Positions 45,405-58,868 of a stretch of 64,000 nucleotides of DNA are shown piece after piece. Under the pieces are notes generated by a model. The model did not search any database. It had not been told where the DNA came from and saw only the letters and a list, made by a program, of their open reading frames with translations. This DNA comes from Acidimicrobiia bacterium. Its GTDB lineage: Bacteria; Actinomycetota; Acidimicrobiia; Spongiisociales; ZC4RG35. The stretch's first letter is position 1; every line of letters starts with the position of its first letter. The DNA lies in assembly GCA_965203555.1 (NCBI GenBank), contig CBDBCY010000004.1, forward strand, positions 480,001 through 544,000. The letters run 5' to 3'. The position numbers and the translations under genes are program-made.

Positions 45405-47080
45405 GCCCCGACCCCATCACCATCGAGATCCTCCGCAACGCCTTCATCATGGCCGCCGAAGAGATGAACGCGGCATTGATCCGCTCCGCATACACGCCGG
45501 TGATCTACGAGTCCAAGGACTGCGCGGTGGCGCTGATCGACAGCCGCCACCGGGTGCTGGGACAGTCCTCGGGAGTCCCACTCTTTTTGGGCAACCTTGA
45601 AGCCTGCACCCTCGCCACCGAGGAGATGTTCGGAAGGTCGGTCTGGAACGAGGGCGACATCTGGATCATGAACGATCCCTACCTGACCGGCACCCACATG
45701 CACGACGTCACCATCTTCGCTCCCATCTTCTACCACGGAGACCTGGCCGGCTTTGCTGCCTCCCGGGCCCACTGGCTGGACATCGGCGCCAAGGACCCCG
45801 GAGTGCCGATGGACTCGACCGAAGTCTTCCAGGAGGGCGTGCGTCTGCCGCCCACCCAGGTGATGAGGGGCGGGCAACCGGTGAAGGACATCTGGTCGAT
45901 CGTGGAAAGCAACGTTCGATTTCCCAGATCGGCGATTGGCGACATGACCGCGCAGTTCGCGGTGGCAGCCATCGGCGAACATCGCCTGGGCGCCCTCTTC
46001 GACCGCTACGGGCGGGATACCGTGGAGGCAGCCGCCGAAGAGATCTTTCGGCAGAGTGAACGGCTGGACCGGGAAGCGATCAGGGCCATTCCAGACGGGG
46101 TATACGCCGCGGAGGGCTTCCTCGATTCCGACGGGGTGGGTGACGACCCGGTCCACATGAAGGTGACGATCACCGTGGATGGCGAGCGGCTGGTATTCGA
46201 CCTCACCGAGACGGACGGCCCTGGCCAGGGCCCGATCAACTGCGGGGCGGTGCAGACCCTGTCCGCCTGCCGCCTGGCTTTCAAGTATCTGTTCAACTCC
46301 CATCAGCCGGTCAACGGAGGGACTTTCCTTCCGCTGGAGGTGAAAACCAAGCCGGGTTCCATCCTGAGCGCGGTCCCACCGGCTGCCTGCCAGTTCTATT
46401 TCACTCCCCTGGGTCTGATGATTGATTTGATCTGTTCGGCGCTCTCGTCCGCCCTTCCCGACACCGTTCCGGCCGCCCATTACGGCGACGGCATGATATT
46501 CCAGTTCACGGGAATAAATCCCCGGACCGATGAACTGTTCCTGGACAACGAGCCCCATGTGGGCGGCTGGGGCGCCTCCCGCGGCCAGGACGGCCAGGAT
46601 GGCATGATCTGGACCCTGTCCGGAAATTTCCACGACATGCCCATTGAAGTGTTCGAATCCAAATTCCCCGCCCGGATCACCGACTACGGCTTCCGCCGGG
46701 ATTCGGCCGGTGCGGGCCGGTGGCGGGGCGGGAACGGCATCATAAGGGAATACCAGATGACCACCGACACGGAGTTGAGCCTGTGGTTCGAGCGGTCGGG
46801 TCACCCGGCCTGGGGCCTGTTCGGCGGCCAGGGCGGGGCGCCCCCGCGAGTGGTGATCAATCCCGGTACACCCCGGGAGATACGGCGACTCAAGACCAAC
46901 CGCATGCCGCTGCGCAAAGGGGATGTCGTGCGCTGTTACACGGGAGGCGGCGGTGGGTACGGTGATCCCCTGGAGCGCGATCCCCGGGCCGTTCTAACCG
47001 ATCTGGCGGATGGCCACATCTCTCCCGACTACGCCGAGCGCCATCATCGGATGAACTCGGAGGAACTCTCCGGGGAGTAA
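45401..47080 (+). CDS. hyuB: Hydantoinase B/oxoprolinase family subunit (second system)
   Basis: EEMNAALIRSAYTPVIYE, NDPYLTGTHMHD, RAHWLDIG, QEG, DSAGAGRWRGG, GGGGGYGDP. ATGA overlap. Confidence 0.94.
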   Translation: MSPDPITIEILRNAFIMAAEEMNAALIRSAYTPVIYESKDCAVALIDSRHRVLGQSSGVPLFLGNLEACTLATEEMFGRSVWNEGDIWIMNDPYLTGTHMHDVTIFAPIFYHGDLAGFAASRAHWLDIGAKDPGVPMDSTEVFQEGVRLPPTQVMRGGQPVKDIWSIVESNVRFPRSAIGDMTAQFAVAAIGEHRLGALFDRYGRDTVEAAAEEIFRQSERLDREAIRAIPDGVYAAEGFLDSDGVGDDPVHMKVTITVDGERLVFDLTETDGPGQGPINCGAVQTLSACRLAFKYLFNSHQPVNGGTFLPLEVKTKPGSILSAVPPAACQFYFTPLGLMIDLICSALSSALPDTVPAAHYGDGMIFQFTGINPRTDELFLDNEPHVGGWGASRGQDGQDGMIWTLSGNFHDMPIEVFESKFPARITDYGFRRDSAGAGRWRGGNGIIREYQMTTDTELSLWFERSGHPAWGLFGGQGGAPPRVVINPGTPREIRRLKTNRMPLRKGDVVRCYTGGGGGYGDPLERDPRAVLTDLADGHISPDYAERHHRMNSEELSGE

Positions 47081-47083
47081 CCC

Positions 47084-47114
47084 GCGCCGCCCGGGTCTTT
47101 GCTCCGGACGGCGC
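47084..47114. terminator. GC-rich hairpin between convergent genes
   Basis: GCGCCGCCCGGG...TCCGGACGGCGC inverted repeat right after the hyuB stop. Confidence 0.5.
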
Positions 47115-47130
47115 AGATCGTAGTCAGCAC

Positions 47131-49002
47131 CTACTCTCCCCCCGTCTCCTCCGGGGCCTCTCCGGAGGTCTCCTCCGGTGGGTTGTCCAGCAACGACTTC
47201 ACCCACTCCATAAGTTCCTGGAGGGGCAGGCTGGGGAACTGGGCCTGGATGTCCAGAGGAACACCGTCTTCCCCGACGTCGATCCCGCCCGGAGTCGTCC
47301 ACCGGATGGTGGTCAGCCTGAAGACGCCCTCATTGAATAGATGGAGCAAACTCTGCCCGGTGTTCTTCTTGAAAGTGGTCTCACCGATCACCACCGCTCC
47401 TCGGGTTTCCTGCAGCAGCCCGGCCAGCACCTCAGCGGCCGAGGCGGATTGCCCGTTCACCAGCACCGCTATCCGGGGGGCGTCGGCTGCCAACAGAGAC
47501 TCGCCAATGCCGTCGATGTCATAGGTCCTGTCCCGAGTGTGGAAGGTCATAACCGGCACCTCACCCACCAGAGACCCGGCTATTTTCTGCAGTACGTCCA
47601 CCCGTCCCCCGGGGTTGTTGCGAAAGTCGAGAACCAGCAGTTCGGTATCCACCACTTCGGCCAGCCGCCCCGCGAACTCCTCGGGGGCGCCACCCGGGGA
47701 CGCGCTGAAGCTGGTCAATTGGATGTAGGCGATGGACTGGGTGTCGTGCGACTCCGCACTGGTGTACGGAACCTCTATTTCCTTGCGAACCAGGGTGAGT
47801 GTGTACTCCTCCCCGTCCCTTTCGAAGGTGATGTCCACCGAGGTGTCGAGTTCGCCCCGGATCAGACCGGCCGCCTCCCGAAGAGTCAGACCGGAAAGAC
47901 GGTTGCCGTCCACGGCAACAATGAAATCCCACGGCAGCAAACCGGCGTTGTAGGCGGGACCGCCCTCGAAGACGTCAAGGATGAAGATCCGGCAGGTCTC
48001 CGAAAGCGGGGAACAGAACGGCTTCCACTGGTCGTCCACCGTGACCACCCGAACTCCGATACCCACGTAGCGGCCCGCCTCATCGATTGCCCTCCACTCT
48101 TCGGGATCGTGGTAGGCGCTGTTACGATCCAACGCCTTGACCATCTCCCGCACCGCGGTTTCCGCAACACTCTTGAGGGGAGTCTCGACCGCGCCCGACG
48201 CCCAGGCGCACACCGGCTCGAAGACCGGATCGGGGATGGAACAGTCAAACCGAGGACGTTTCGCAGCCGATTCCTCCGCCTCCTCCATCGCCAAGGCGGC
48301 CGCCTCGTTCACCGGCGCCGCCAACTCCTCGAGAGTGACTCCCAGCAGGTACCTGGTGTCGATGTACTCGTACACCTCGCACAGCAGCAGCCACTCGTCC
48401 GGATCCTCACAATTGGCGACCGCATAGGGAACCGCCAACGCCCTCTCTATCAGTGTGGCCGCCTCCCGAAGGTTTATGGGGTCCTCGCCACAGAACCGCA
48501 ACGGATCCTCGGCACACCCCCTGGTGATCCCGTCCGCATACAAGCCGCTAACCGCATCCGCGTAGAACGCGTCTTCCGGGATGTCGGTAAAGGACGCCGG
48601 ATCGGCCGGGTGCCGGTCATCGAAGAACGCCCGATCCAGCCAAACGGCGAACTCGCCGCGGGTGATCACCTCGTCCGGACGGAAGGTCCCATCCGGGTCT
48701 GCATTCACCACCCCCTCCAGGGCCAGGGCTTCGATGGTCCCTGCGCTCCGGCTGTTCTCCCCCACATCCGAGAACAGGCCCTGCCAAGGCTCTTCCGCAA
48801 GACTCAGGGCCTCGGCCAGCAGGACCGCCGCTTCCCGGTTGGTCAGTGCCCGGCTCCCGTCAAGGGAGATGGGGACGGGGTGCGGGGCATCGTCGGATGT
48901 GGACGGCGCCTCCTGAGCGAGGACCGGGCCTGTAAATATCAAGCCCACCGCGATAACGGACGCCAAGACCCGCTTGGCAAAGGGAACAGTAAAGGAAATC
49001 AT
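47131..49002 (-). CDS. S41 family carboxy-terminal processing protease (PDZ) with N-terminal SLH domains
   Basis: Signal peptide. SLH repeats (FRPDEVITRGEFA, GITRGC...FCGED). YVGIGV PDZ entry, LDFRNNPGG, NGQSASAAE (Ser), TFKK (Lys). Confidence 0.9.
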   Translation of the reverse strand: MISFTVPFAKRVLASVIAVGLIFTGPVLAQEAPSTSDDAPHPVPISLDGSRALTNREAAVLLAEALSLAEEPWQGLFSDVGENSRSAGTIEALALEGVVNADPDGTFRPDEVITRGEFAVWLDRAFFDDRHPADPASFTDIPEDAFYADAVSGLYADGITRGCAEDPLRFCGEDPINLREAATLIERALAVPYAVANCEDPDEWLLLCEVYEYIDTRYLLGVTLEELAAPVNEAAALAMEEAEESAAKRPRFDCSIPDPVFEPVCAWASGAVETPLKSVAETAVREMVKALDRNSAYHDPEEWRAIDEAGRYVGIGVRVVTVDDQWKPFCSPLSETCRIFILDVFEGGPAYNAGLLPWDFIVAVDGNRLSGLTLREAAGLIRGELDTSVDITFERDGEEYTLTLVRKEIEVPYTSAESHDTQSIAYIQLTSFSASPGGAPEEFAGRLAEVVDTELLVLDFRNNPGGRVDVLQKIAGSLVGEVPVMTFHTRDRTYDIDGIGESLLAADAPRIAVLVNGQSASAAEVLAGLLQETRGAVVIGETTFKKNTGQSLLHLFNEGVFRLTTIRWTTPGGIDVGEDGVPLDIQAQFPSLPLQELMEWVKSLLDNPPEETSGEAPEETGGE

Positions 49003-49049
49003 TAAGGCAAGACTAACGATCCCCGGCAGTTATGTCCCTGAAGTAGATT

Positions 49050-49167
49050 GTCCGGCGGTGACCTACTCTCCCGGGGTTTTGCAACCCAAGTACCATCGGC
49101 GCTGTCGGGTTTCACTTCCGTGTTCGGAATGGGAACGGGTGGTTCCCCAACGCTATCGCCACCGGAC
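49050..49167 (-). rRNA. rrf: 5S rRNA
   Basis: Reverse complement contains ACCCGTTCCCATTCCGAACACGGAAGTGAAAC, GCCGATGGTACT and GGGAGAGTAGGTC, with terminal helix TGTCCGG/CCGGACA. Confidence 0.97.
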
Positions 49168-49426
49168 AACCAAACTCACAACAAGCAAATCATCTGGGAT
49201 TCCCTGTCCAAGCCCTCGGCCTATTAGTACCGGTCAGCTGAACGCATTGCTGCGCTTACACCTCCGGCCTATCAACCTGGTGTTCTGCCAGGGGCCTTAC
49301 CGGGTAATACCCGTGGGAGACCTCATCTTGGGGTGGGCTTCGCACTTAGATGCCTTCAGCGCTTATCCCGTCCGTACGTAGCTAACCAGCCGTGCTCTTG
49401 GCAGAACAACTGGCACACCAGAGGTA

Positions 49427-49458
<32 letters not shown>

Positions 49459-49482
49459 CTCCCCTCAAGTCTCCTGCGCCTG

Positions 49483-49517
<35 letters not shown>

Positions 49518-49536
49518 AAACCCAGCTCGCGTGCCG

Positions 49537-49615
<79 letters not shown>

Positions 49616-49804
49616 ACGCCGTCGATATGGACTCTTGGGCGTGATTAGCCTGTTATCCCCGGAGTACCTTTTAGCCGATGAGCCATGGCGCACCCACGTG
49701 CCACCATGGGATCACTAAGCCCGACTTTCGTCCCTGTTTGACTTGTAGGTCTCACAGTCAAGCTCCCTTGTGCCTTTACACTCGTCGTCTGATTGCCGAC
49801 CAGA

Positions 49805-49845
<41 letters not shown>

Positions 49846-50127
49846 CACCGCCCCAGTGAAACTGACCGCCAGACACTGTCCCCGATCCGGATTACGGACC
49901 CGGGTTAGAAGCCCGTCGTACAAAGGGTGGTATTCCAAGGTTGACTCCACAGAGGCTTGCGCCTCTGCTTCCTCGTCTCCCACCTATCCTGCACATTACA
50001 CGCCAGACTCCAATGCCAAGCTACAGTAAAGGTTCCGGGGTCTTACCGTCCTGCCGCAGGTAGTGAGCATCTTTACTCACATTGCAATTTCGCCGAGTCC
50101 CTGGTTGAGACAGTGCCCAAATCGTTG

Positions 50128-50171
<44 letters not shown>

Positions 50172-50798
50172 CGGATGATCCCACCTGTTTCCAAGCGGGC
50201 CGGACTTTACCTTGATTGACCTCGATTCATCTGACCGGCGATCTGGCGTATCCGATCAACGCCTTCTTCGGTCAGATGCTCCCCCGCTTCCATCATCAGC
50301 AGGATGCGTCGGAACTTCTCGAACGCAATCCGCTTTCTGGTCTTCAGCGGGTGCTTGACAAAGAACGGAACGATATACCGGAGCAAATGCTCGATGCTGC
50401 GCACACGGTAGGCCATCCGGTCGCCGTGGTTCTTGCGTACCACGCCGCACCCGAAATGGCTCTTCATTGCATGCAGTACCTGTACATCGCGTTCGTGCTG
50501 CACAACGGTGAACTCAGGTAGAACCTGAAAGCCGGTCTTCATGCTGGGATGAGGGTTTATCCCGACGTGAAAGCAACCTTCACCGTCCACGAATCCTGTT
50601 ATCCATTGACTGTCAAGCTTCATCGATCAATCCTGAACGTCAAGTCTCTGAGGGTTTCCATTGCAGATTGGACCTTCCCTGCGGATTGTCCCCATGTCTG
50701 CCGGATTTTTACTGCCCGCCTGTGAGGACGGACGAGTACCGGACAGCTGTACGAGGAGTTTCCCGCATATGGTTCAGTTTTACTAAGGCTGCGATTCA
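50172..50798 (-). mobile_element. Group I intron in 23S rRNA, L1931-equivalent site, 627 nt
   Basis: The insert falls exactly at CCTAAGGT^AGCGAAA. The 5' exon ends in U and the intron ends in G. IGS GCCUUAG pairs with exon CUAAGGU (U-G at the splice site). P3 CUGAAC/GUUCAG, R element CAGAGACUU and S element AAAGUCC are present. Confidence 0.95.
50207..50623 (-). CDS. Intron-encoded single-motif LAGLIDADG homing endonuclease
   Basis: 138-aa intact ORF with WITGFVDGEGCF, F.VVQH..D..VL, FGCGVV, IVPFF.KHPL.T.K...FEKF, located inside the intron. Confidence 0.96.
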   Translation of the reverse strand: MKLDSQWITGFVDGEGCFHVGINPHPSMKTGFQVLPEFTVVQHERDVQVLHAMKSHFGCGVVRKNHGDRMAYRVRSIEHLLRYIVPFFVKHPLKTRKRIAFEKFRRILLMMEAGEHLTEEGVDRIRQIAGQMNRGQSR

Positions 50799-50842
<44 letters not shown>

Positions 50843-51721
50843 AATTCAGAGCTTCGCCCGAGGGCTAACACCTCCTCTTAACCTTCCGGCACCGGGCAGG
50901 CGTCACAGCGTATACGTCGTCTTACGACTTAGCACGCTGCTGTGCTTTTAGTAAGCAGTCGTTTGGGCCTGGTCACTGCGGCCCCCTCAAGCTTCGGAGG
51001 AAAACTCCTACACTTTACCGGGGCGCTCCTTCTCCCGAGGTTACGGAGCCAATTTGCCGAATTCCTTAACCAGGGTTAACTCGCTCGCCTTGGTATTCTC
51101 TACCTGTCCACCTGTGTCGGTTTGGGGTACGGGCGCCCTGTGAACTCACTAGAGGTTTTTCTCGGTGGCATGGGCGTTCAGCGGCTTCTCCTAGAGGCGG
51201 ATCGGCGTCACGCCTCGGGCTTTTTTCGTGGCCCGGATTTACCTGGGCCACACCCTACACGTTTACCCCGGGAACAACCAACGCCCGGGTCCGCTTACCC
51301 TTCCACGTCGCCCCATTGTTGACCTCCTCCGGTCTGGGTCGACCACATCCGAAGATGCGGTCTTAGCAAGACCGGCCTTGGTCGGGCGCGCACAGAGCGG
51401 TACGGGAATATCAACCCGTTGTCCATCGACTACGCCTTGCGGCCTCGCCTTAGGTCCCGACTAACCCTGGGCGGACGAACCTTCCCCAGGAACCCTTGGA
51501 CATTCGGCGGAAGAGATTCTCACTCTCCATTCGCTACTCATACCGGCATTCTCACTCGTGCCGTCTCCACGTCTCCTCACGGCGACGCTTCTCTGTCGAC
51601 ACGACGCTCCCCTACCGATCCCGCCCAACGGACGGAATCTCGCAGCTTCGGTGCTGAGCTTTAGCCCCGTTACATTTTCCGCGCAGCGCCACTCGACCAG
51701 TGAGCTATTACGCATTCTTTA

Positions 51722-51756
<35 letters not shown>

Positions 51757-52328
51757 TTGTGCAACTCCACATCGTTTCCCACTTAGCTCAGACTTAGGGA
51801 CCTTAGCTGGCGATCTGGGCTGTTTCCCTCGCGTCCACGAAGCTCATCCCACGTAGACTGACTGCCACGCTCTCACGCAATGAGATTCGGAGTTTGACTG
51901 AAGTTGGTAGGCTTGTGGGCCCCCTAGTTCAATCAGTGCTCTACCCCCATTGCGAAACGCGTAACGCTAGCCCTAAAGCTATTTCGGGGAGAACCAGCTA
52001 TCACCGGGCTTGATTGGCCTTTCACCCCTATCCACAGGTCATCCCCCAAGTTTTCAACCTTGGTGGGTTCGGGCCTCCACGAAGTCTTACCTTCGCTTCA
52101 CCCTGCCCATGGATAGCTCGCCCGGATTCGGGTCTAGGGCATGCGACTGGGTCGCCCTGTTCAGACTCGCTTTCGCTTCGGCTCCGGTACAACTACCTTA
52201 ACCTTGCCACATACCGCTAACTCGCCGGCTCATTCTTCAAAAGGCAGGCGGTCAGAGTTCCGTAGAACTCCTCCCACTGCTTGTAGGTCAACGGTTTCAG
52301 GTACTATTTCACTCCCCTCACCGGGGTG

Positions 52329-52370
<42 letters not shown>

Positions 52371-53054
52371 CAGGAAGTAATTAGCCTTACGAGGTGGTTC
52401 TCGCAGATTCACACGGAATATCCTCCGTGATACTTGGGAACACCGCTCAGAGAGCGACAACCTTCGCCTACGGGGCTGTTACCGTCTGCGGCCCGGCTTT
52501 CCATCCGGGTTCGGCTGATCGCCGCCTTTGTAACTCTGTGACGGCGCCGACGCACCGTCCAGCGGGTCCCACTACCCCCCCGCAGCAACGCCGTCGGGCT
52601 TTCATACACTGCAGAGGTTTGGGCTGATCCCGTTTCGCTCGCCGCTACTCAGGGATTCGCTATTGCTTTCTCTTCCTCGGAGTACTTAGATGTTTCAGTT
52701 CCACCGGTTCCCTCTACCGGTCCTATGTGTTCAGACCGGAGTGACTGGGCATGACCCCAGCCGGGTTTCCCCATTCGGACATCCCCGGGTCGAAGCTTGC
52801 TTGACAGCTCGCCGGGGCTTATCGCAGCCTGCCACGTCCTTCGTCGGCTCCTGGCGCCAAGGCATCCACCGATGACCCTTGGTAGCTTGGACAGAGAATC
52901 CAAGACAATTTGCTTGTTATGAAACTTTCAAGGTGCCAGTGGAGGTCACCCGTGCCAACGTGGGCGGCGGGCTCCCTCACAGCTGAATAGTGCGCCCGAG
53001 CCGCTTGCGCGGCCCGAGTAACCGGTGACCAAGTGAGAGCATTGTTTGCTCCTT

Positions 53055-54571
<1,517 letters not shown>

Positions 54572-54741
54572 ACACTTTTTGGGAGCGGGTCGCCCCGCTC
54601 GTGTGGTGTCAATTATGTGAGTTTGCATCCATTGTTTAAGGGGTCCCGGGCCACATGAGGTGACCCGAGCTCTTTGTGGATGCCACCGACCCATCCCAAG
54701 AGGCGTGAGGCCCAGGGGTGGATCGGCGCATACCGGCTTTT

Positions 54742-54768
54742 GGCACACTATCCAGTTGTCAAGAAGCC
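54742..54768 (-). promoter_or_regulatory. rRNA leader arm of the 16S processing stem (boxA-like)
   Basis: Leader GCTTCTTGACAACTGGATAGTGTGCC is complementary to spacer GGCGCACTATTCAGCTGTGAGGGAGC (~52971-52996). A similar pair ACAAGCAAAT/ATTTGCTTGT flanks the 23S. Confidence 0.7.
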
Positions 54769-54801
54769 CGCAGGGGTTCTCCCGAAGTATCGGGCCTCTG
54801 A

Positions 54802-54831
54802 ATGATAGACACCCCCGCTAGCAAAGTCCAA
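54802..54831 (-). promoter_or_regulatory. Putative sigma70-type rRNA promoter
   Basis: TTGGAC-18 nt-TATCAT just downstream of the tyrS stop and upstream of the rRNA leader. Confidence 0.4.
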
Positions 54832-54832
54832 A

Positions 54833-56023
54833 TCAATTTCGGAGAAAAACCGACCTTCGCTTGCCCACCGTGAGAACTTTTTTTACCAACAATTCCCGCC
54901 CGACCTCATAGCCCCGAAGTGGCTTGCCGTCAATCCTGACCGCCCCCGCGTCTATCAGACGCCTGCCCTGGCTGGCTGAGGGCGCCAGCTGTGCCGACCT
55001 GAGCAATCCCGGCAGATATACCGGATCGTCGGCGGGAAGAGTGTGAGGGGGAGCGTCCCGGGGGACTTTCCGGTACTTGAACCGGCGGTCGAAATCCGCT
55101 TCGGCGGCGTTCGCCTCCCCCTCTCCCCAGTAGAGGGAGACGATTTGTTTCCCCAACAGCCTTTTGGCGGTGGCCGGATGCAGGCGTCCGTCATCGATCT
55201 GTTCGAGGATCCCGTTCACTTGCTCAACCGGTCGATCGGCCGCCAGCCGGAACCACTCTCCTAGAAGGTGATCGGGGATGGACATGGTCTTGCCGAACAT
55301 CTCGGACGCCGGTTCCGTCACTCCTATGTAATTGCCCAGCGACTGTGACATTTTTTGGCGGCCGTCGATGCCGGTGAGAAGCGGCATGGTGAGAGCAACC
55401 TGTGGCTTCTGTCCGTAGCGGGTCTGGATGATCCGACCCATCATCAGGTTCCACAACTGGTCCGTACCGCCCAACTCCACGTCCGCTTCAACCGCCACCG
55501 AGTCGTAACCCTGCAGCAGCGGATACAGAAACTCCAGAATCGAGATGGGAGTTTGCTCCGAGAAGCGATCGGCGAAGTCGGAACGCTCCAGCATCTGCGC
55601 CACCGTCACCGTCGAGGCGAGTTCCAGAATCTCGGTCATGTCCAAGGACTCCAGCCACTCCGAGTTCCAACGGATCTCCAGGGGTTCGGGGAGCAGCACC
55701 GAGCGGAATTGGTCCAGCAGCGGTTCGGCGTACGAACGGACCTCATCGGCGGTGAGGCGGCGGCGGGTCTGGCTCTTTCCGCTCGGGTCACCCACCCGGG
55801 CCGTGAAGTCCCCCACGATCAGCACGGCGGTGTGACCCAACTCCTGGAAGTGGCGGAGTTTTCGCAGCACCACCGCCCATCCCAGGGTGACCATGGGTGC
55901 GGTGGGGTCGAGGCCCAGCTTGATGCGAAGAGGGCGGCCGCTGTCCAGCAATTCTTCAAGACCTCCCGGCGGCAAGACCGTGTCGGCGCCTCGGAAGGCC
56001 AGGTTGAGATCTCTCGAAGTCAT
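54833..56023 (-). CDS. tyrS: Tyrosine--tRNA ligase
   Basis: KLGLDPTA, VTLGW (HIGH variant), GDPSGK, YPLLQGYDS, ELGGTDQ, KMSQS, C-terminal S4-like domain. Confidence 0.97.
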   Translation of the reverse strand: MTSRDLNLAFRGADTVLPPGGLEELLDSGRPLRIKLGLDPTAPMVTLGWAVVLRKLRHFQELGHTAVLIVGDFTARVGDPSGKSQTRRRLTADEVRSYAEPLLDQFRSVLLPEPLEIRWNSEWLESLDMTEILELASTVTVAQMLERSDFADRFSEQTPISILEFLYPLLQGYDSVAVEADVELGGTDQLWNLMMGRIIQTRYGQKPQVALTMPLLTGIDGRQKMSQSLGNYIGVTEPASEMFGKTMSIPDHLLGEWFRLAADRPVEQVNGILEQIDDGRLHPATAKRLLGKQIVSLYWGEGEANAAEADFDRRFKYRKVPRDAPPHTLPADDPVYLPGLLRSAQLAPSASQGRRLIDAGAVRIDGKPLRGYEVGRELLVKKVLTVGKRRSVFLRN

Positions 56024-56213
56024 GAGTTAATCCCGAGAATCTAACCGAGAAAAGGAAACCTCCATAAAGCAGGCGGAAAGGACCACAAGAGGAAGATCCC
56101 GTTCCCATAAATCCCCCGAAACGTAACCGACCAGACAGGACCAGCAAGTCCGCGCCTTTGTGAAAGCACACAACCGCCAAGCAGCATGCATGTCAAGGCC
56201 GGGTGCTGCTTCG

Positions 56214-58868
56214 TCAGGCTGACAATCTGACCACCCTGGCATTGCCCACATGGGCGTAACGGCCGGGAGTGCAGGTCAGGATGATGATCTGGCACTGCCT
56301 GCCCGCGGCCCCTATGGCGGCGCCCATTCGTGACAGACGCTCGGGATCGCTCCACCCCAGCGCGTCGTCGACTATCACGGGAGCTCCCCCGCCGTCGGGA
56401 CTTACGATGGCCGCGCACGCCAGTCGGCTCAACAGACCCAGCTGTTCGCGGGCGCCGGCGCTCAGTTGATCGACCTCCAGGGTGACGCCGTCCAGGGTAC
56501 GGCGGACCACCTCCAGATCGTCGCCCACTTCGACCCCGAATCCGGAACCGAACACGATCCGCCCGAATTCCTCGATACGTTCGACGAGAGGGGCGTGGTA
56601 GCGCAGCCGGCTCTGTTGTCGCCGCGCCGCGAACTTGGCATAGAGCAACTTGGCGGCGTGGGCGCGCGCTTGCAGGCGCTCGTGCTGACGCTGGAGGCGC
56701 CTCATCCGGCGCTCCGCTTCACCGAGGCGCGTGTACAGTCCCTCTTCCCCCCGCAGTTTCAGGCTGGCACGCAGCTCCCTTTCTTCCTCCCGGTTGTCCC
56801 GCAGCTCTCCGACCGCCCGCCGGCTGGCGGCCCGGGCATTGTCGAGCAGCACCTGGACGGAGTCGGGATCGGCGGCCCTCAAGTCCTCTCTGGCCCGTGC
56901 CAGGGAGCCGGAAGCCCCATCGACCCGGTCCTCCGCCGACCGGAGATCACCTTCCAACTGGGAGTCCGAGCGTTCCTCCCTGGCCCGCCGGAGCAAGCGT
57001 TCGGCCTCTTCCACGGCGTGCCGACCGTCCTCGATCCGCACTTCCAGGGTGGCCTTGCGTAGTTCCTGCTCGGAGCGTTGCCCGGATGCAGACTCCAGGT
57101 CGGCCTGCAGCATCCGGTACTCATCCCGGCGTTCGGCAAGCAGGTCCTTCCTCTCCGCGGCAATCTGCTTGGCTTCCTCGTAGCTGGAGGGCAGGAGCGG
57201 ATCGGAAGGTCGCTGGGCCGCGTAGCCATCGATCCGCCGGCCAATCTCCTTGATCTTTTCCTGCATGACCTCGGGGGTGAGATCACGCAGATCGCGCCTT
57301 ATGGCATCGACCGCCTCCTGACGGGTCCGCTCGGCTTCCCTGCGGTCGGCCACCGCCCGGCGAGCCGCGGCGAGATCGGAGACCCCGCCGGAAGCGCACA
57401 GGTTGCGCAACTCTTCCCGGGCACGGTTCAACTCGGTCGCCAGGTTCCGGGACTCGGGCCCGGCCTGGATCCGCAGCTCCGCCACTCCGGGCGCCAGGAA
57501 TACCATCTCCCGGGTCACCACTCCCCTGATATCTTCGCCGGCGCCGAATGTCACCCCCTCACCGTCGATCCGCATGGAGATCTCGGACAGGGCGGTCCCG
57601 GCCAGCTGCAATCCGGCACTGTACACCGCGCTGTCGGCTCGCACCACCGCCAGATGGGCCTCTTCGATTCTGGCCAGGAGGTTTTCGTCCATCCTGGCCG
57701 ACTGCAGATGGATCTCGGCATCCCTGAGGCTGTATTGAGCGGTGATGGTTCTCTGCCAGCGTTCTCGCAGTTGTTCGTAGTCGATCAGCGAGCGATGATG
57801 CTCGTGGTCCCCGCGGGCGACGCGGTGGTCGGCCTCGGCGGCGCGCAGCGCGCTTTTAGCCTCTTCCAGCGCCCTTTGAGCTTCCTGGCCGTGTGCGATG
57901 GCCGCCTCGATCAACGGGGCGGCCCGTCGAGCCTCCGCCTCCAGTTCGGCCAGTTCGGCGTTTCGAGAGTGGTGAGCGCTCACCAGATCACCACGGCGGC
58001 GTTGCTGGCTGACAATGCGGTGCCTGAGCGCCGTGGCCTCACGGTGGGCGCTTTCGTAACGTTCCACCTCGCCGCGCAGTCGCTCGGCCGCAGCTTGGCG
58101 GTTCTCCAGGTCTTGTTCGGCGCGATCGCACTCATCGCGGATGCCCACCAGGCGGGCCCGGTCGGTGCGCAGGTAGGCGACCCTGGCGGCGTCCCGTTCG
58201 ATCTCCTGGAGTTGGCCTTCCAGTTCGGCCACCTTCTCCTGTGAGTCCTCGACCCTGCGACTCAACTCGCTCCGTGCCTGCTTCACCCGGCCGGTGGCGG
58301 TCCAGTACCTCTCGCGCTCATCGCAGATTCGTCGCCACAGGTTGTCCTCACCGTCACCGGTGGCGTCGCCACCGACCGCCATGTCCAGAGCATCGACCAG
58401 GGACCGCACGTTGAATGCCGGCATGACCAATTCACCATGCCGCTTGGCGCCGGTCCATTGCTCCACTCTCAACGCCCGCCACAGCTCATGATCGAGGGTC
58501 TCGTCGAGTATGCCCCTAACCCGATCGTGGGCCTCGCGTCCGGTGACCTGCTCTTGGCGCGGCGCCGTGATGTTAAGAGTGGTACGGGGACGTCTCAGCC
58601 ACCGCTTCCGGTACGCGAAGCGGTAGGCGCCTGTGGAGACTTCGATCTCCACCTCGGGGACCTCGTCCCGGTGCACCGGCCGGACGTTCTCAATCCGCTT
58701 GGCGCGGGAGGAGTCGAGCATTTCGAGAATCAGATCGACGGCCTCGGGTATGGAGGTCTTTCCTCTTTCGTTGGCGCCTTCGATGATCGTCACGCCCTCG
58801 GTGGGGAACTCCACGGTGTCGTCGACGACGCCGCGGTAGTTGCGCAGCCGCACCCGGTGGATTCTCAC
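56214..58868 (-). CDS. Rad50/SbcC-like SMC coiled-coil ATPase (Rv1278/YhaN-like)
   Basis: RLRNYRG, Walker A GANERGKTS, long coiled coil, signature LSAGAREQ, Walker B VIVDDALG, ILTC. Confidence 0.9.
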   Translation of the reverse strand: MRIHRVRLRNYRGVVDDTVEFPTEGVTIIEGANERGKTSIPEAVDLILEMLDSSRAKRIENVRPVHRDEVPEVEIEVSTGAYRFAYRKRWLRRPRTTLNITAPRQEQVTGREAHDRVRGILDETLDHELWRALRVEQWTGAKRHGELVMPAFNVRSLVDALDMAVGGDATGDGEDNLWRRICDERERYWTATGRVKQARSELSRRVEDSQEKVAELEGQLQEIERDAARVAYLRTDRARLVGIRDECDRAEQDLENRQAAAERLRGEVERYESAHREATALRHRIVSQQRRRGDLVSAHHSRNAELAELEAEARRAAPLIEAAIAHGQEAQRALEEAKSALRAAEADHRVARGDHEHHRSLIDYEQLRERWQRTITAQYSLRDAEIHLQSARMDENLLARIEEAHLAVVRADSAVYSAGLQLAGTALSEISMRIDGEGVTFGAGEDIRGVVTREMVFLAPGVAELRIQAGPESRNLATELNRAREELRNLCASGGVSDLAAARRAVADRREAERTRQEAVDAIRRDLRDLTPEVMQEKIKEIGRRIDGYAAQRPSDPLLPSSYEEAKQIAAERKDLLAERRDEYRMLQADLESASGQRSEQELRKATLEVRIEDGRHAVEEAERLLRRAREERSDSQLEGDLRSAEDRVDGASGSLARAREDLRAADPDSVQVLLDNARAASRRAVGELRDNREEERELRASLKLRGEEGLYTRLGEAERRMRRLQRQHERLQARAHAAKLLYAKFAARRQQSRLRYHAPLVERIEEFGRIVFGSGFGVEVGDDLEVVRRTLDGVTLEVDQLSAGAREQLGLLSRLACAAIVSPDGGGAPVIVDDALGWSDPERLSRMGAAIGAAGRQCQIIILTCTPGRYAHVGNARVVRLSA

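Follow-up and report, generated by a model that had tools for sequence, protein, structure and literature searches.

The window analysed here, a stretch of 64,000 nucleotides (nt) from an uncultured Acidimicrobiia bacterium, carries on its minus strand an rRNA operon (5S, 49050-49166; 23S, 49204-52892; 16S, 53057-54571) whose 23S gene is interrupted by a group I intron encoding a LAGLIDADG homing endonuclease. The element is an intact representative of a known family, the L1931 introns with their endonucleases, and, as far as its sequence tells, is probably active. The operon occupies 529-534 kb of contig C4, about 530 kb into that contig, in a four-contig assembly of 3.42 Mb and 95% completeness; the intron-bearing 23S gene is the sole large-subunit rRNA gene of this assembly, and the copy number of the intron is one. 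A first-pass annotation, made by a model from the letters alone, had placed an apparently intact group I intron of 627 nt at 50172-50798 in the 23S gene of an actinobacterium. These positions have proved exact to the base against both the E. coli gene and six empty sites, and the actinobacterial host is borne out by the closest public records, which come from Acidimicrobiia. The genes and the intron are as follows.

49204-52892, minus strand: 23S rRNA gene, 3689 nt with the intron counted in (match to Rfam LSU_rRNA_bacteria over model positions 1-2925, 2728 bits)
50172-50798, minus strand: group I intron, 627 nt, after U1931 of E. coli 23S rRNA (from the reading of the boundaries, the empty sites and the Rfam model RF00028)
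50207-50623, minus strand: LAGLIDADG homing endonuclease gene, 138 amino acids (aa) plus TAA, in the P8 loop (open reading frame and Pfam)

The boundaries of the insert are fixed by a gap in the E. coli gene, by the empty sites of congeners and by the exon words shared with related loci. Read on the minus strand, the 5' exon finishes with ...CGGUCCUAAGGU at 50799 and the insert opens with UGAAUCGCAGCCUUAG at 50798; it closes with ...GGGAUCAUCCG at 50172 and is followed by the 3' exon AGCGAAAUUCC from 50171, the insert measuring 627 nt and the whole layout being ...ACGGUCCUAAGGU / UGAAUCGCAGCCUUAGUAAAACUGAACC ... GGUGGGAUCAUCCG / AGCGAAAUUCCUUG... A global MAFFT alignment with E. coli 23S rRNA leaves a single gap of 627 nt at the insert, exactly at 50172-50798. 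Likewise, six genomes of the same genus match query positions 1-402 and 1030-1401 at adjoining coordinates, so that exactly 627 nt are absent from them. Of 80 related loci in other genomes, 78 have the same two exon words separated by an insert (623-841 nt) that in every case ends in G; the two exon motifs served to extract these loci, and L021 and L055 gave no site with them.

The last U of the 5' exon is position 1930 in the 2903-nt E. coli 23S copy used, in which the helix-69 uridines stand at 1910, 1914 and 1916. The standard numbers of these uridines (pseudouridines), on which the one-base offset depends, are taken here to be 1911, 1915 and 1917; as the E. coli copy runs one behind at helix 69, the insertion site is L1931 in standard numbering. 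This site lies between helices 69 and 71, at the interface of the ribosomal subunits. A classical RNase III intervening sequence was rejected as an explanation of the insert, which has a full group I core. No tRNA genes were found in the 16S-23S spacer or beside the operon (window positions 47000-56500 scanned). Elsewhere in the 23S gene, extra segments relative to E. coli comprise 81 nt after about position 295 (window 52514-52594) and 24 and 45 nt around E. coli 1403-1414 (window 51320-51399); an actinobacterial signature insertion is known from near the latter two.

The ribozyme core and its covariation

The Rfam model of group I introns, RF00028, with which the first-pass annotation had proposed to scan the insert, matches it from end to end (model positions 1-253) with an E-value of 3e-11 and 48.7 bits, just under the curated cut-off of 50. 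Because the intron is without P2 and holds an open reading frame of 417 nt in P8, the model sets P1 and P2 on exon sequence. The secondary structure was written from the sequence of the window itself together with folds of contiguous segments, and it consists of the following elements, named in their order along the transcript.

50799-50805, minus strand: 5'-exon strand of P1, CUAAGGU, its last U forming the U•G pair at the 5' splice site
50791-50794, minus strand: intron strand of P10, UCGC (intron 5-8), for a P10 of 4 base pairs (bp)
50783-50789, minus strand: internal guide sequence GCCUUAG, 3' strand of P1 (intron 10-16)
50772-50777, minus strand: 5' strand of P3, CUGAAC (intron 22-27), the interval from P1 to P3 lacking P2
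50651-50767, minus strand: P4-P5-P5a-P5b-P6-P6a domain (intron 32-148), ViennaRNA fold of -46.8 kcal/mol
50643-50648, minus strand: 5' strand of P7, GAGACU with a bulged A (intron 151-156), in the R element
50633-50638, minus strand: 3' strand of P3, GUUCAG (intron 161-166)
50624-50632, minus strand: 5' strand of P8, GAUUGAUCG (intron 167-175)
50214-50224, minus strand: 3' strand of P8, CGA-GG-UCAAUC (intron 575-585), in the end of the open reading frame
50202-50206, minus strand: 3' strand of P7, AGUCC (intron 593-597), in the S element, immediately after the stop codon
50173-50201, minus strand: P9.0 (GG/CC, 2 bp) around P9 (8 bp, GAAA loop), intron 598-626
50172, minus strand: terminal guanosine (omega-G), last nucleotide before the 3' splice site; the 78 related introns all share this final G
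50167-50170, minus strand: 3'-exon strand of P10, GCGA (exon +2 to +5)

All the elements that had been read from the letters at first (the guide GCCUUAG, the UCGC/GCGA pairing of P10, P3, P7 and the terminal G) are thus present, and the extended P5 arm (P5a and P5b) contains the A-rich bulge GUAAAAAU.

The conservation of this structure was examined in 76 distinct introns, aligned and drawn from about a dozen phyla, namely that of the window and 75 of the 78 related loci (two introns longer than 720 nt and one duplicate were excluded). Standard pairs fill 93.5% of the 5846 cells and only 27-46% once the 3' partners have been shifted by one to three columns, a comparison biased in favour of the structure by its derivation from the window's own sequence. 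The bias does not touch the covariation, since compensatory changes in the other sequences are independent of where the structure came from. Such changes, on both sides of a pair, occur in 45 of the 78 pairs; they amount to 806 cells against a shuffled mean of 217, and none of 500 shuffles reached any of the observed measures.

The covarying helices are P3, P5a, P5b, P6a, P8, P9.0 and P9, while P1, P4 and P7 are nearly invariant. The seven pairs of P1 are all formed in 76 of 76 sequences with the U•G pair invariant, and P7 is paired in 99.5% of its cells and hardly varies. In P3, five of the six pairs show compensatory changes and every cell is paired; the corresponding counts of compensated pairs are 7/7 for P5a, 7/11 for P5b, 4/4 for P6a and 7/8 for P9, to which all six outer pairs of P8 may be added. 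The GC pairs of P9.0 are replaced by AU pairs in 8 and 21 of the 76 sequences. The inner three pairs of P10 are kept in 71/75, 71/75 and 71/74 scorable sequences and its outer U-A pair in 39/75. One pair at the base of P5 (columns 94/211; paired in 16%) and the inner three pairs of P8 (55%) are poorly kept and are, for that reason, not supported as features of the family.

The ribozyme core is complete, comprising P1 with its U•G pair, P10, P3 to P9 with the P3/P7 pseudoknot, P9.0 and the terminal G, and it is maintained by compensatory changes; the first description of the intron as an intact one is upheld by the P3-P9 core and its covariation in the 76 introns. Several members of the family carry extra blocks in their peripheral loops with the core unchanged (L017, L022, L026 of Pseudohongiella, L036 of Trueperaceae, L042, L043, L083 and L081). 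These blocks lie in P6a (about 80 nt), in P5b (about 60 nt), near P9 or the 3' end (about 55 nt) and in P5 (20-30 nt), and the longest intron of the family reaches 841 nt.

The endonuclease and its relatives

The open reading frame between the two P7 strands encodes, as had been proposed, a single-motif LAGLIDADG protein of 138 aa. Pfam LAGLIDADG_1 (PF00961) matches it in one stretch over residues 8-107 of 138, with an E-value of 1.5e-23 and 84.1 bits against a cut-off of 23.1. The reading frame and the ribozyme overlap: the stop codon TAA (50209-50207) falls in J8/7 (AAGG-UAA-AGUCC), and the final codons are the 3' strand of P8. An AGGA stands 7 nt upstream of the ATG, within the P3 and P8 strands; it is a possible ribosome-binding site, which folding of the intron would mask.

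The motif reads ITGFVDGEG, and across all 76 copies the codons of GFVDGEG do not vary in their first two positions; the Glu of this motif is presumably the catalytic, metal-binding acidic residue. The frame is open in all 76 members of the family, with a length of exactly 138 aa in 64 of them and a range of 133-154. The ratio of nonsynonymous to synonymous substitution rates (dN/dS) lies between 0.04 and 0.20 in 20 of the 21 pairs formed by seven copies, five from the genus and two from elsewhere in the actinobacteria. Judged by these comparisons, the gene is intact and under purifying selection.

That the protein has the LAGLIDADG fold is beyond doubt, given its match to a 'putative homing endonuclease' of 170 aa in the Protein Data Bank, entry 5gkk (5gkk_A, E 1e-53, about 59% identity, or 80/135 residues counted by hand), and its alignments to the halves of I-SmaMI (E about 1e-22). 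In both I-SmaMI and I-OnuI, each half of the two-domain enzyme aligns to the whole protein. These two are two-domain monomers of fungal mitochondria with other targets, whereas the protein of the window has a single motif and, by analogy, would act as a homodimer cutting the intron-less allele.

Relatives of the endonuclease are numerous. A search among proteins of 75-242 aa gave 4582 at E ≤ 0.001; the best 120 clusters are 77-97% identical to it, and 114 of these 120 have 138 aa. Taking one genome per species gave 281 candidate stretches, 165 of them encoding a relative, and the loci of other phyla discussed here (L numbers) are the best 80 of those 165. Among these 80 genomes, 78 hold the L1931 intron/endonuclease family at this very site. 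The phyla among the best 80 are Actinomycetota, Pseudomonadota, Acidobacteriota, Chloroflexota, Gemmatimonadota, Planctomycetota, Chlamydiota, Myxococcota, Nitrospirota, Deinococcota, Latescibacterota, Eiseniibacteriota and Patescibacteria, and the carriers in Chloroflexota include the cultured Bellilinea caldifistulae GOMI-1. The endonuclease of the window is matched at 77-81% identity by copies from Pseudomonadota, Patescibacteria and further phyla. In the protein tree the host phyla cluster, with 21 changes where shuffling gives 42.9; the window and three other copies form a clade of Acidimicrobiia only, with an SH-aLRT support of 96, or of 85 when L010 is added, and the nearest non-actinobacterial neighbour by tree path, within the best 80 of 165, is L015 of Patescibacteria.

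Introns at L1931 are known from several bacteria. Those listed by Haugen et al. (2007; PMC1995217) belong to Simkania, Synechococcus and Thermotoga. According to Table 1 of that paper, the intron of Simkania negevensis has 654 nt and a single-motif LAGLIDADG frame of 143 aa; from this description it shares with the intron of the window the site, a similar size and an endonuclease of similar kind and length, and it differs in its host (Chlamydiota instead of Acidimicrobiia) and in detail from the 627 nt and 138 aa found here. A copy from a metagenome-assembled genome of Chlamydiae (L040; intron of 650 nt, protein 72% identical) falls in the same aligned family. Similarly, the L1931 introns of Thermotoga (neapolitana, petrophila and naphthophila) and Synechococcus are given in the same table with 666-700 nt and frames of 162-167 aa; they have the site and the kind of endonuclease in common with the window, whose frame is shorter and whose host is a non-thermophile of another phylum. 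The description given of the Synechococcus intron (PMC1995217), with no P2 and with a complex P5 region, applies to the intron of the window too. The naming of the subgroup is unsettled, the published classifications being IC1-like (PMC1995217) and, for archaeal LSU/1931, IB4 (Nawrocki et al., 2018; PMC6125680).

Introns in rRNA are regarded as a hallmark of the candidate phyla radiation (CPR) and as scarce in other bacteria, and the LAGLIDADG_1 genes of CPR are reported at 1917, 1931, 1952, 2593, 2604 and 2657 (Tsurumaki et al., 2024; PMC11270868). The likeness to the CPR introns extends to the site 1931, to the Pfam family and to a copy that is 77% identical (L015); the difference is that the host here is a non-CPR actinobacterium with one intron in its gene. 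The first-pass annotation had likewise held rRNA introns to be rare in bacteria, a view that does not agree with 78 of 80 genomes from about a dozen phyla or with relatives in 65 of 401 Acidimicrobiia genomes. It had also allowed that such introns might prove common and already described in this lineage; common they are, and the literature search found no paper describing them in Actinomycetota, subscription journals and supplements (which may list non-CPR hosts) having lain outside that search. What is new is the host lineage and the frequency of such introns in it, the mechanism being already known. As for the suggestion of a new meganuclease, the protein is at most a new ortholog and its target site is already well known. 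I-CpaI, the L1931 endonuclease of a Chlamydomonas chloroplast intron, is expected to have the same conserved 23S rDNA target.

Within the class Acidimicrobiia, the relatives just mentioned (E ≤ 1e-10) are spread over 46 of 177 genera. Only the copies of the three genomes that represent the present genus in this sample exceed 90% identity, and the others lie at 30-48%. The twelve best loci all fall inside 23S genes, with inserts at or near 1917, 1931, 1951 and 2604 (mapped by blastn against the E. coli 23S gene) and up to three inserts per gene. At L1931 itself, the introns of other Acidimicrobiia genera, one of them in the same family, have 704-792 nt, a different core and longer frames, and their endonucleases are only 39-48% identical to that of the window. 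The genus thus holds a separately acquired lineage, since the L1931 introns of other genera differ from it in length, core and open reading frame. Comparison of the sequences supports the horizontal entry of this lineage into the genus, as had been proposed at first, the endonuclease being 77-81% identical to those of other phyla against 39-48% for those of other Acidimicrobiia genera.

Several further observations concern these loci. The L1931 inserts of L114-L122 have frames of 179-257 aa from stop to stop, and the genes of G129 and G226 hold three inserts each. Two L1931 inserts of other Acidimicrobiia (309 and 371 nt) have no endonuclease gene. The inserts of L114 and L117, with boundaries set by the exon motifs, end in A and C instead of G, which could reflect a shifted site or an unusual 3' end. 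In the phylum Actinomycetota as a whole, 50 of 401 sampled genomes gave a match, a count that includes the unpublished G545 and takes no account of where in the genome the matches lie; a genome of another actinobacterial class (G458, C6:140587-141000) has a full-length copy of the 138-aa type, 78% identical. In 17 of the 78 loci of the cross-phylum set, the stretch upstream of AACGGTCCTAAGGT bears no relation to the exon sequence expected there and in most cases ends in G (L014, L015, L020, L023, L027, L029, L031, L033, L035, L047, L059, L060, L062, L071, L072, L074 and L076), a pattern suggestive of another intron near L1917, 14 nt away from the one at L1931.

Presence and descent of the intron within the genus

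A survey of related genomes, which the first-pass annotation had recommended, covered 17 genomes of the genus. The intron is present in five of them and the exact empty site in six; five others have no 23S match, and one has only a divergent 23S (73-80% identical and contiguous at the site), which is probably foreign. Besides the window, four genomes therefore carry an intron at the same site, two of them as single-contig chromosomes, and the introns of the genus are 90-97% identical. The exons of the window are 96-99% identical to the 23S of congeners over the 1401-nt stretch compared. Extra 23S fragments of 73-80% identity on contigs C96 and C135 of G015 and C58 of G016 probably belong to other organisms. 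The runs that hold the intron are marine, sponge and coral metagenomes.

In the exon tree of the 11 informative genomes, the distribution of the intron requires four changes, of which at least three are forced by well-supported branches; for example, the sister genomes G006 (with the intron) and G009 (without it) are joined with a support of 100/100. Exon differences are about 2-3% in all pairs, and those of the introns range from 2.7% (window and G003) to 11.4%. The exon tree sets (G003, G015) against (window, (G006, G007)). The exon data reject a clade of the window and G003 (p-AU 0.0023), and the intron data reject G003 with G015 (p-AU 0.014) and, marginally, the window with G006 and G007 (p-AU 0.045), p-values that are indicative only because the groups were chosen after the trees had been inspected. 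The patchy presence in the genus and the disagreement between the intron and exon trees suggest that the intron moved recently within it. From these sequences the intron has probably passed between species of the genus since its entry. The initial description of the element as probably still mobile can be kept as plausible, in view of the patchy presence, the conflict of the trees and the purifying selection on the endonuclease.

Splicing, homing and their alternatives

The explanation held here with good confidence is that the window contains a mobile group I intron of the L1931 family, lacking P2 and having an extended P5 arm, in the single 23S gene of its host, from which it would be spliced and from which it would home in the manner known for such elements. 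The intron would be transcribed as part of the pre-rRNA, and on folding its guide sequence would pair with CUAAGGU. A free guanosine held in P7 would then attack after U1931. The terminal G would take the place of this guanosine, and the 5' exon would attack the 3' splice site, aligned by P10 and P9.0, to give a continuous 23S rRNA with the junction CCUAAGGU-AGCGAAA expected in RNA. The 138-aa protein would be translated from the precursor or from the excised intron. As a homodimer, like other single-motif enzymes, it would cut intron-less 23S rDNA at CCTAAGGT/AGCGAAA, and repair off the intron-bearing copy would insert the intron. The protein may also assist the folding of the ribozyme as a maturase, an activity of the kind reported for the L1931 protein of Thermotoga (Hausner et al., 2014; PMC3984707).

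Several observations weigh against this explanation. The RF00028 score is 1.3 bits short of its curated cut-off. The closest pair of endonuclease copies, those of the window and G003, has a dN/dS of 0.63, based on about 15 substitutions only. To the choice of tree groups after inspection it must be added that recombination of rRNA genes could also yield the conflict of intron and exon trees. The RNA data consist of assembled contigs, whose depths pool organisms. The joined form 50171/50799 appears in the RNA runs X16 (one contig) and X17 (20 contigs) with a shorter side of only 23-30 nt, and a loose end of the joined form is also present in X1, a run of unrecorded kind that the run list names as the best holder of the stretch. 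The short side and the loose end in X1 imply that the joined contigs may stem from other, intron-less bacteria; not being attributable to this organism, they are not counted in support of splicing. Intron contigs occur in all three RNA runs, two of them crossing the 3' splice site (with 17 and 25 nt of exon), and could be precursor RNA, unspliced rRNA or DNA carry-over. The L1931 intron of Simkania was reportedly published as unspliced (Everett et al., 1999, 'An unspliced group I intron in 23S rRNA...').

It is possible, though unlikely, that the intron splices and no longer moves, its protein being a maturase or in decay and its patchiness being due solely to vertical inheritance in which the intron was repeatedly and precisely lost. 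The maturase-like activity reported from Thermotoga (PMC3984707) would suit this, as would the dN/dS of the window and G003; moreover, dN/dS does not separate a nuclease from a maturase function, and a genome with a single operon offers the intron no empty target of its own. Yet none of the 76 copies has lost the acidic residue of the motif (E in GFVDGEG), the histories of intron and exon conflict, the well-supported sisters G006 and G009 differ in its presence, and the same lineage of endonucleases is found about 80% identical across phyla.

A smaller chance is given to an intron that stays unspliced in vivo, so that the mature 23S rRNA retains the insert of 627 nt or is cut there and the ribosome tolerates it. 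The Simkania intron would reportedly be a precedent, and the intron contigs of the three metatranscriptome runs, including the two across the 3' splice site, fit it as well. Against it, the parts that serve splicing alone (the U•G pair of P1, P10, P9.0, the terminal G and the guanosine site of P7) are conserved or covarying across the 76 introns, which implies selection for splicing, and the site is the one between helices 69 and 71 at the subunit interface. A hint, and a weak one, comes from the depth of intron and exon contigs, which is about 12 against 350-640 in X14 and X16 (with neighbouring, near-identical exons), 60 against 130 in X17 and 4.4 against 5.8 in X1. Splicing is therefore argued indirectly, from the conservation or covariation of the catalytic and exon-aligning elements, from the site at the subunit interface and from there being no second 23S gene. 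The stronger statement of the first-pass annotation, that the intron must splice, is not borne out, the RNA contigs not being assignable to this organism. Lastly, a chimeric rRNA gene or a foreign rRNA operon in the bin is hardly credible: rRNA genes are often mis-assembled in metagenome bins and no single contig of the four runs covers the whole 23S gene, yet an intron 90-97% identical stands at the same site in four more genomes of the genus, of which two are single-contig chromosomes, the operon lies deep in its contig, the exons agree closely with those of congeners, and contigs of independent runs cross the junction of the intron and the 3' exon.

For the organism, the position of the intron in its single rRNA operon means that every ribosome hangs on what becomes of that one element. 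For the annotation of its genome, the 23S gene includes 627 nt too many and the open reading frame is to be labelled as intron-encoded. The family is usually called rare outside CPR and organelles, and the survey finds it in about a dozen phyla; about one in six sampled Acidimicrobiia genomes carries LAGLIDADG genes. The commonness of LAGLIDADG-bearing 23S introns in Acidimicrobiia bears on rRNA-based surveys and on ideas of how such elements persist. The enzyme of 138 aa is among the shortest of its kind and has hundreds of natural variants for one site, which makes it of modest interest for the engineering of meganucleases. It may be, and we put this forward tentatively and with more doubt than belief, that Acidimicrobiia and the wider Actinomycetota form an unrecognised reservoir of rRNA introns outside CPR and that the L1931 intron is now moving between species of this genus, which is associated with sponges and the sea. 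If true, the genus would offer a natural system for following the cycle of gain and loss of a homing intron in free-living or symbiotic bacteria, in spite of their single rRNA operon.

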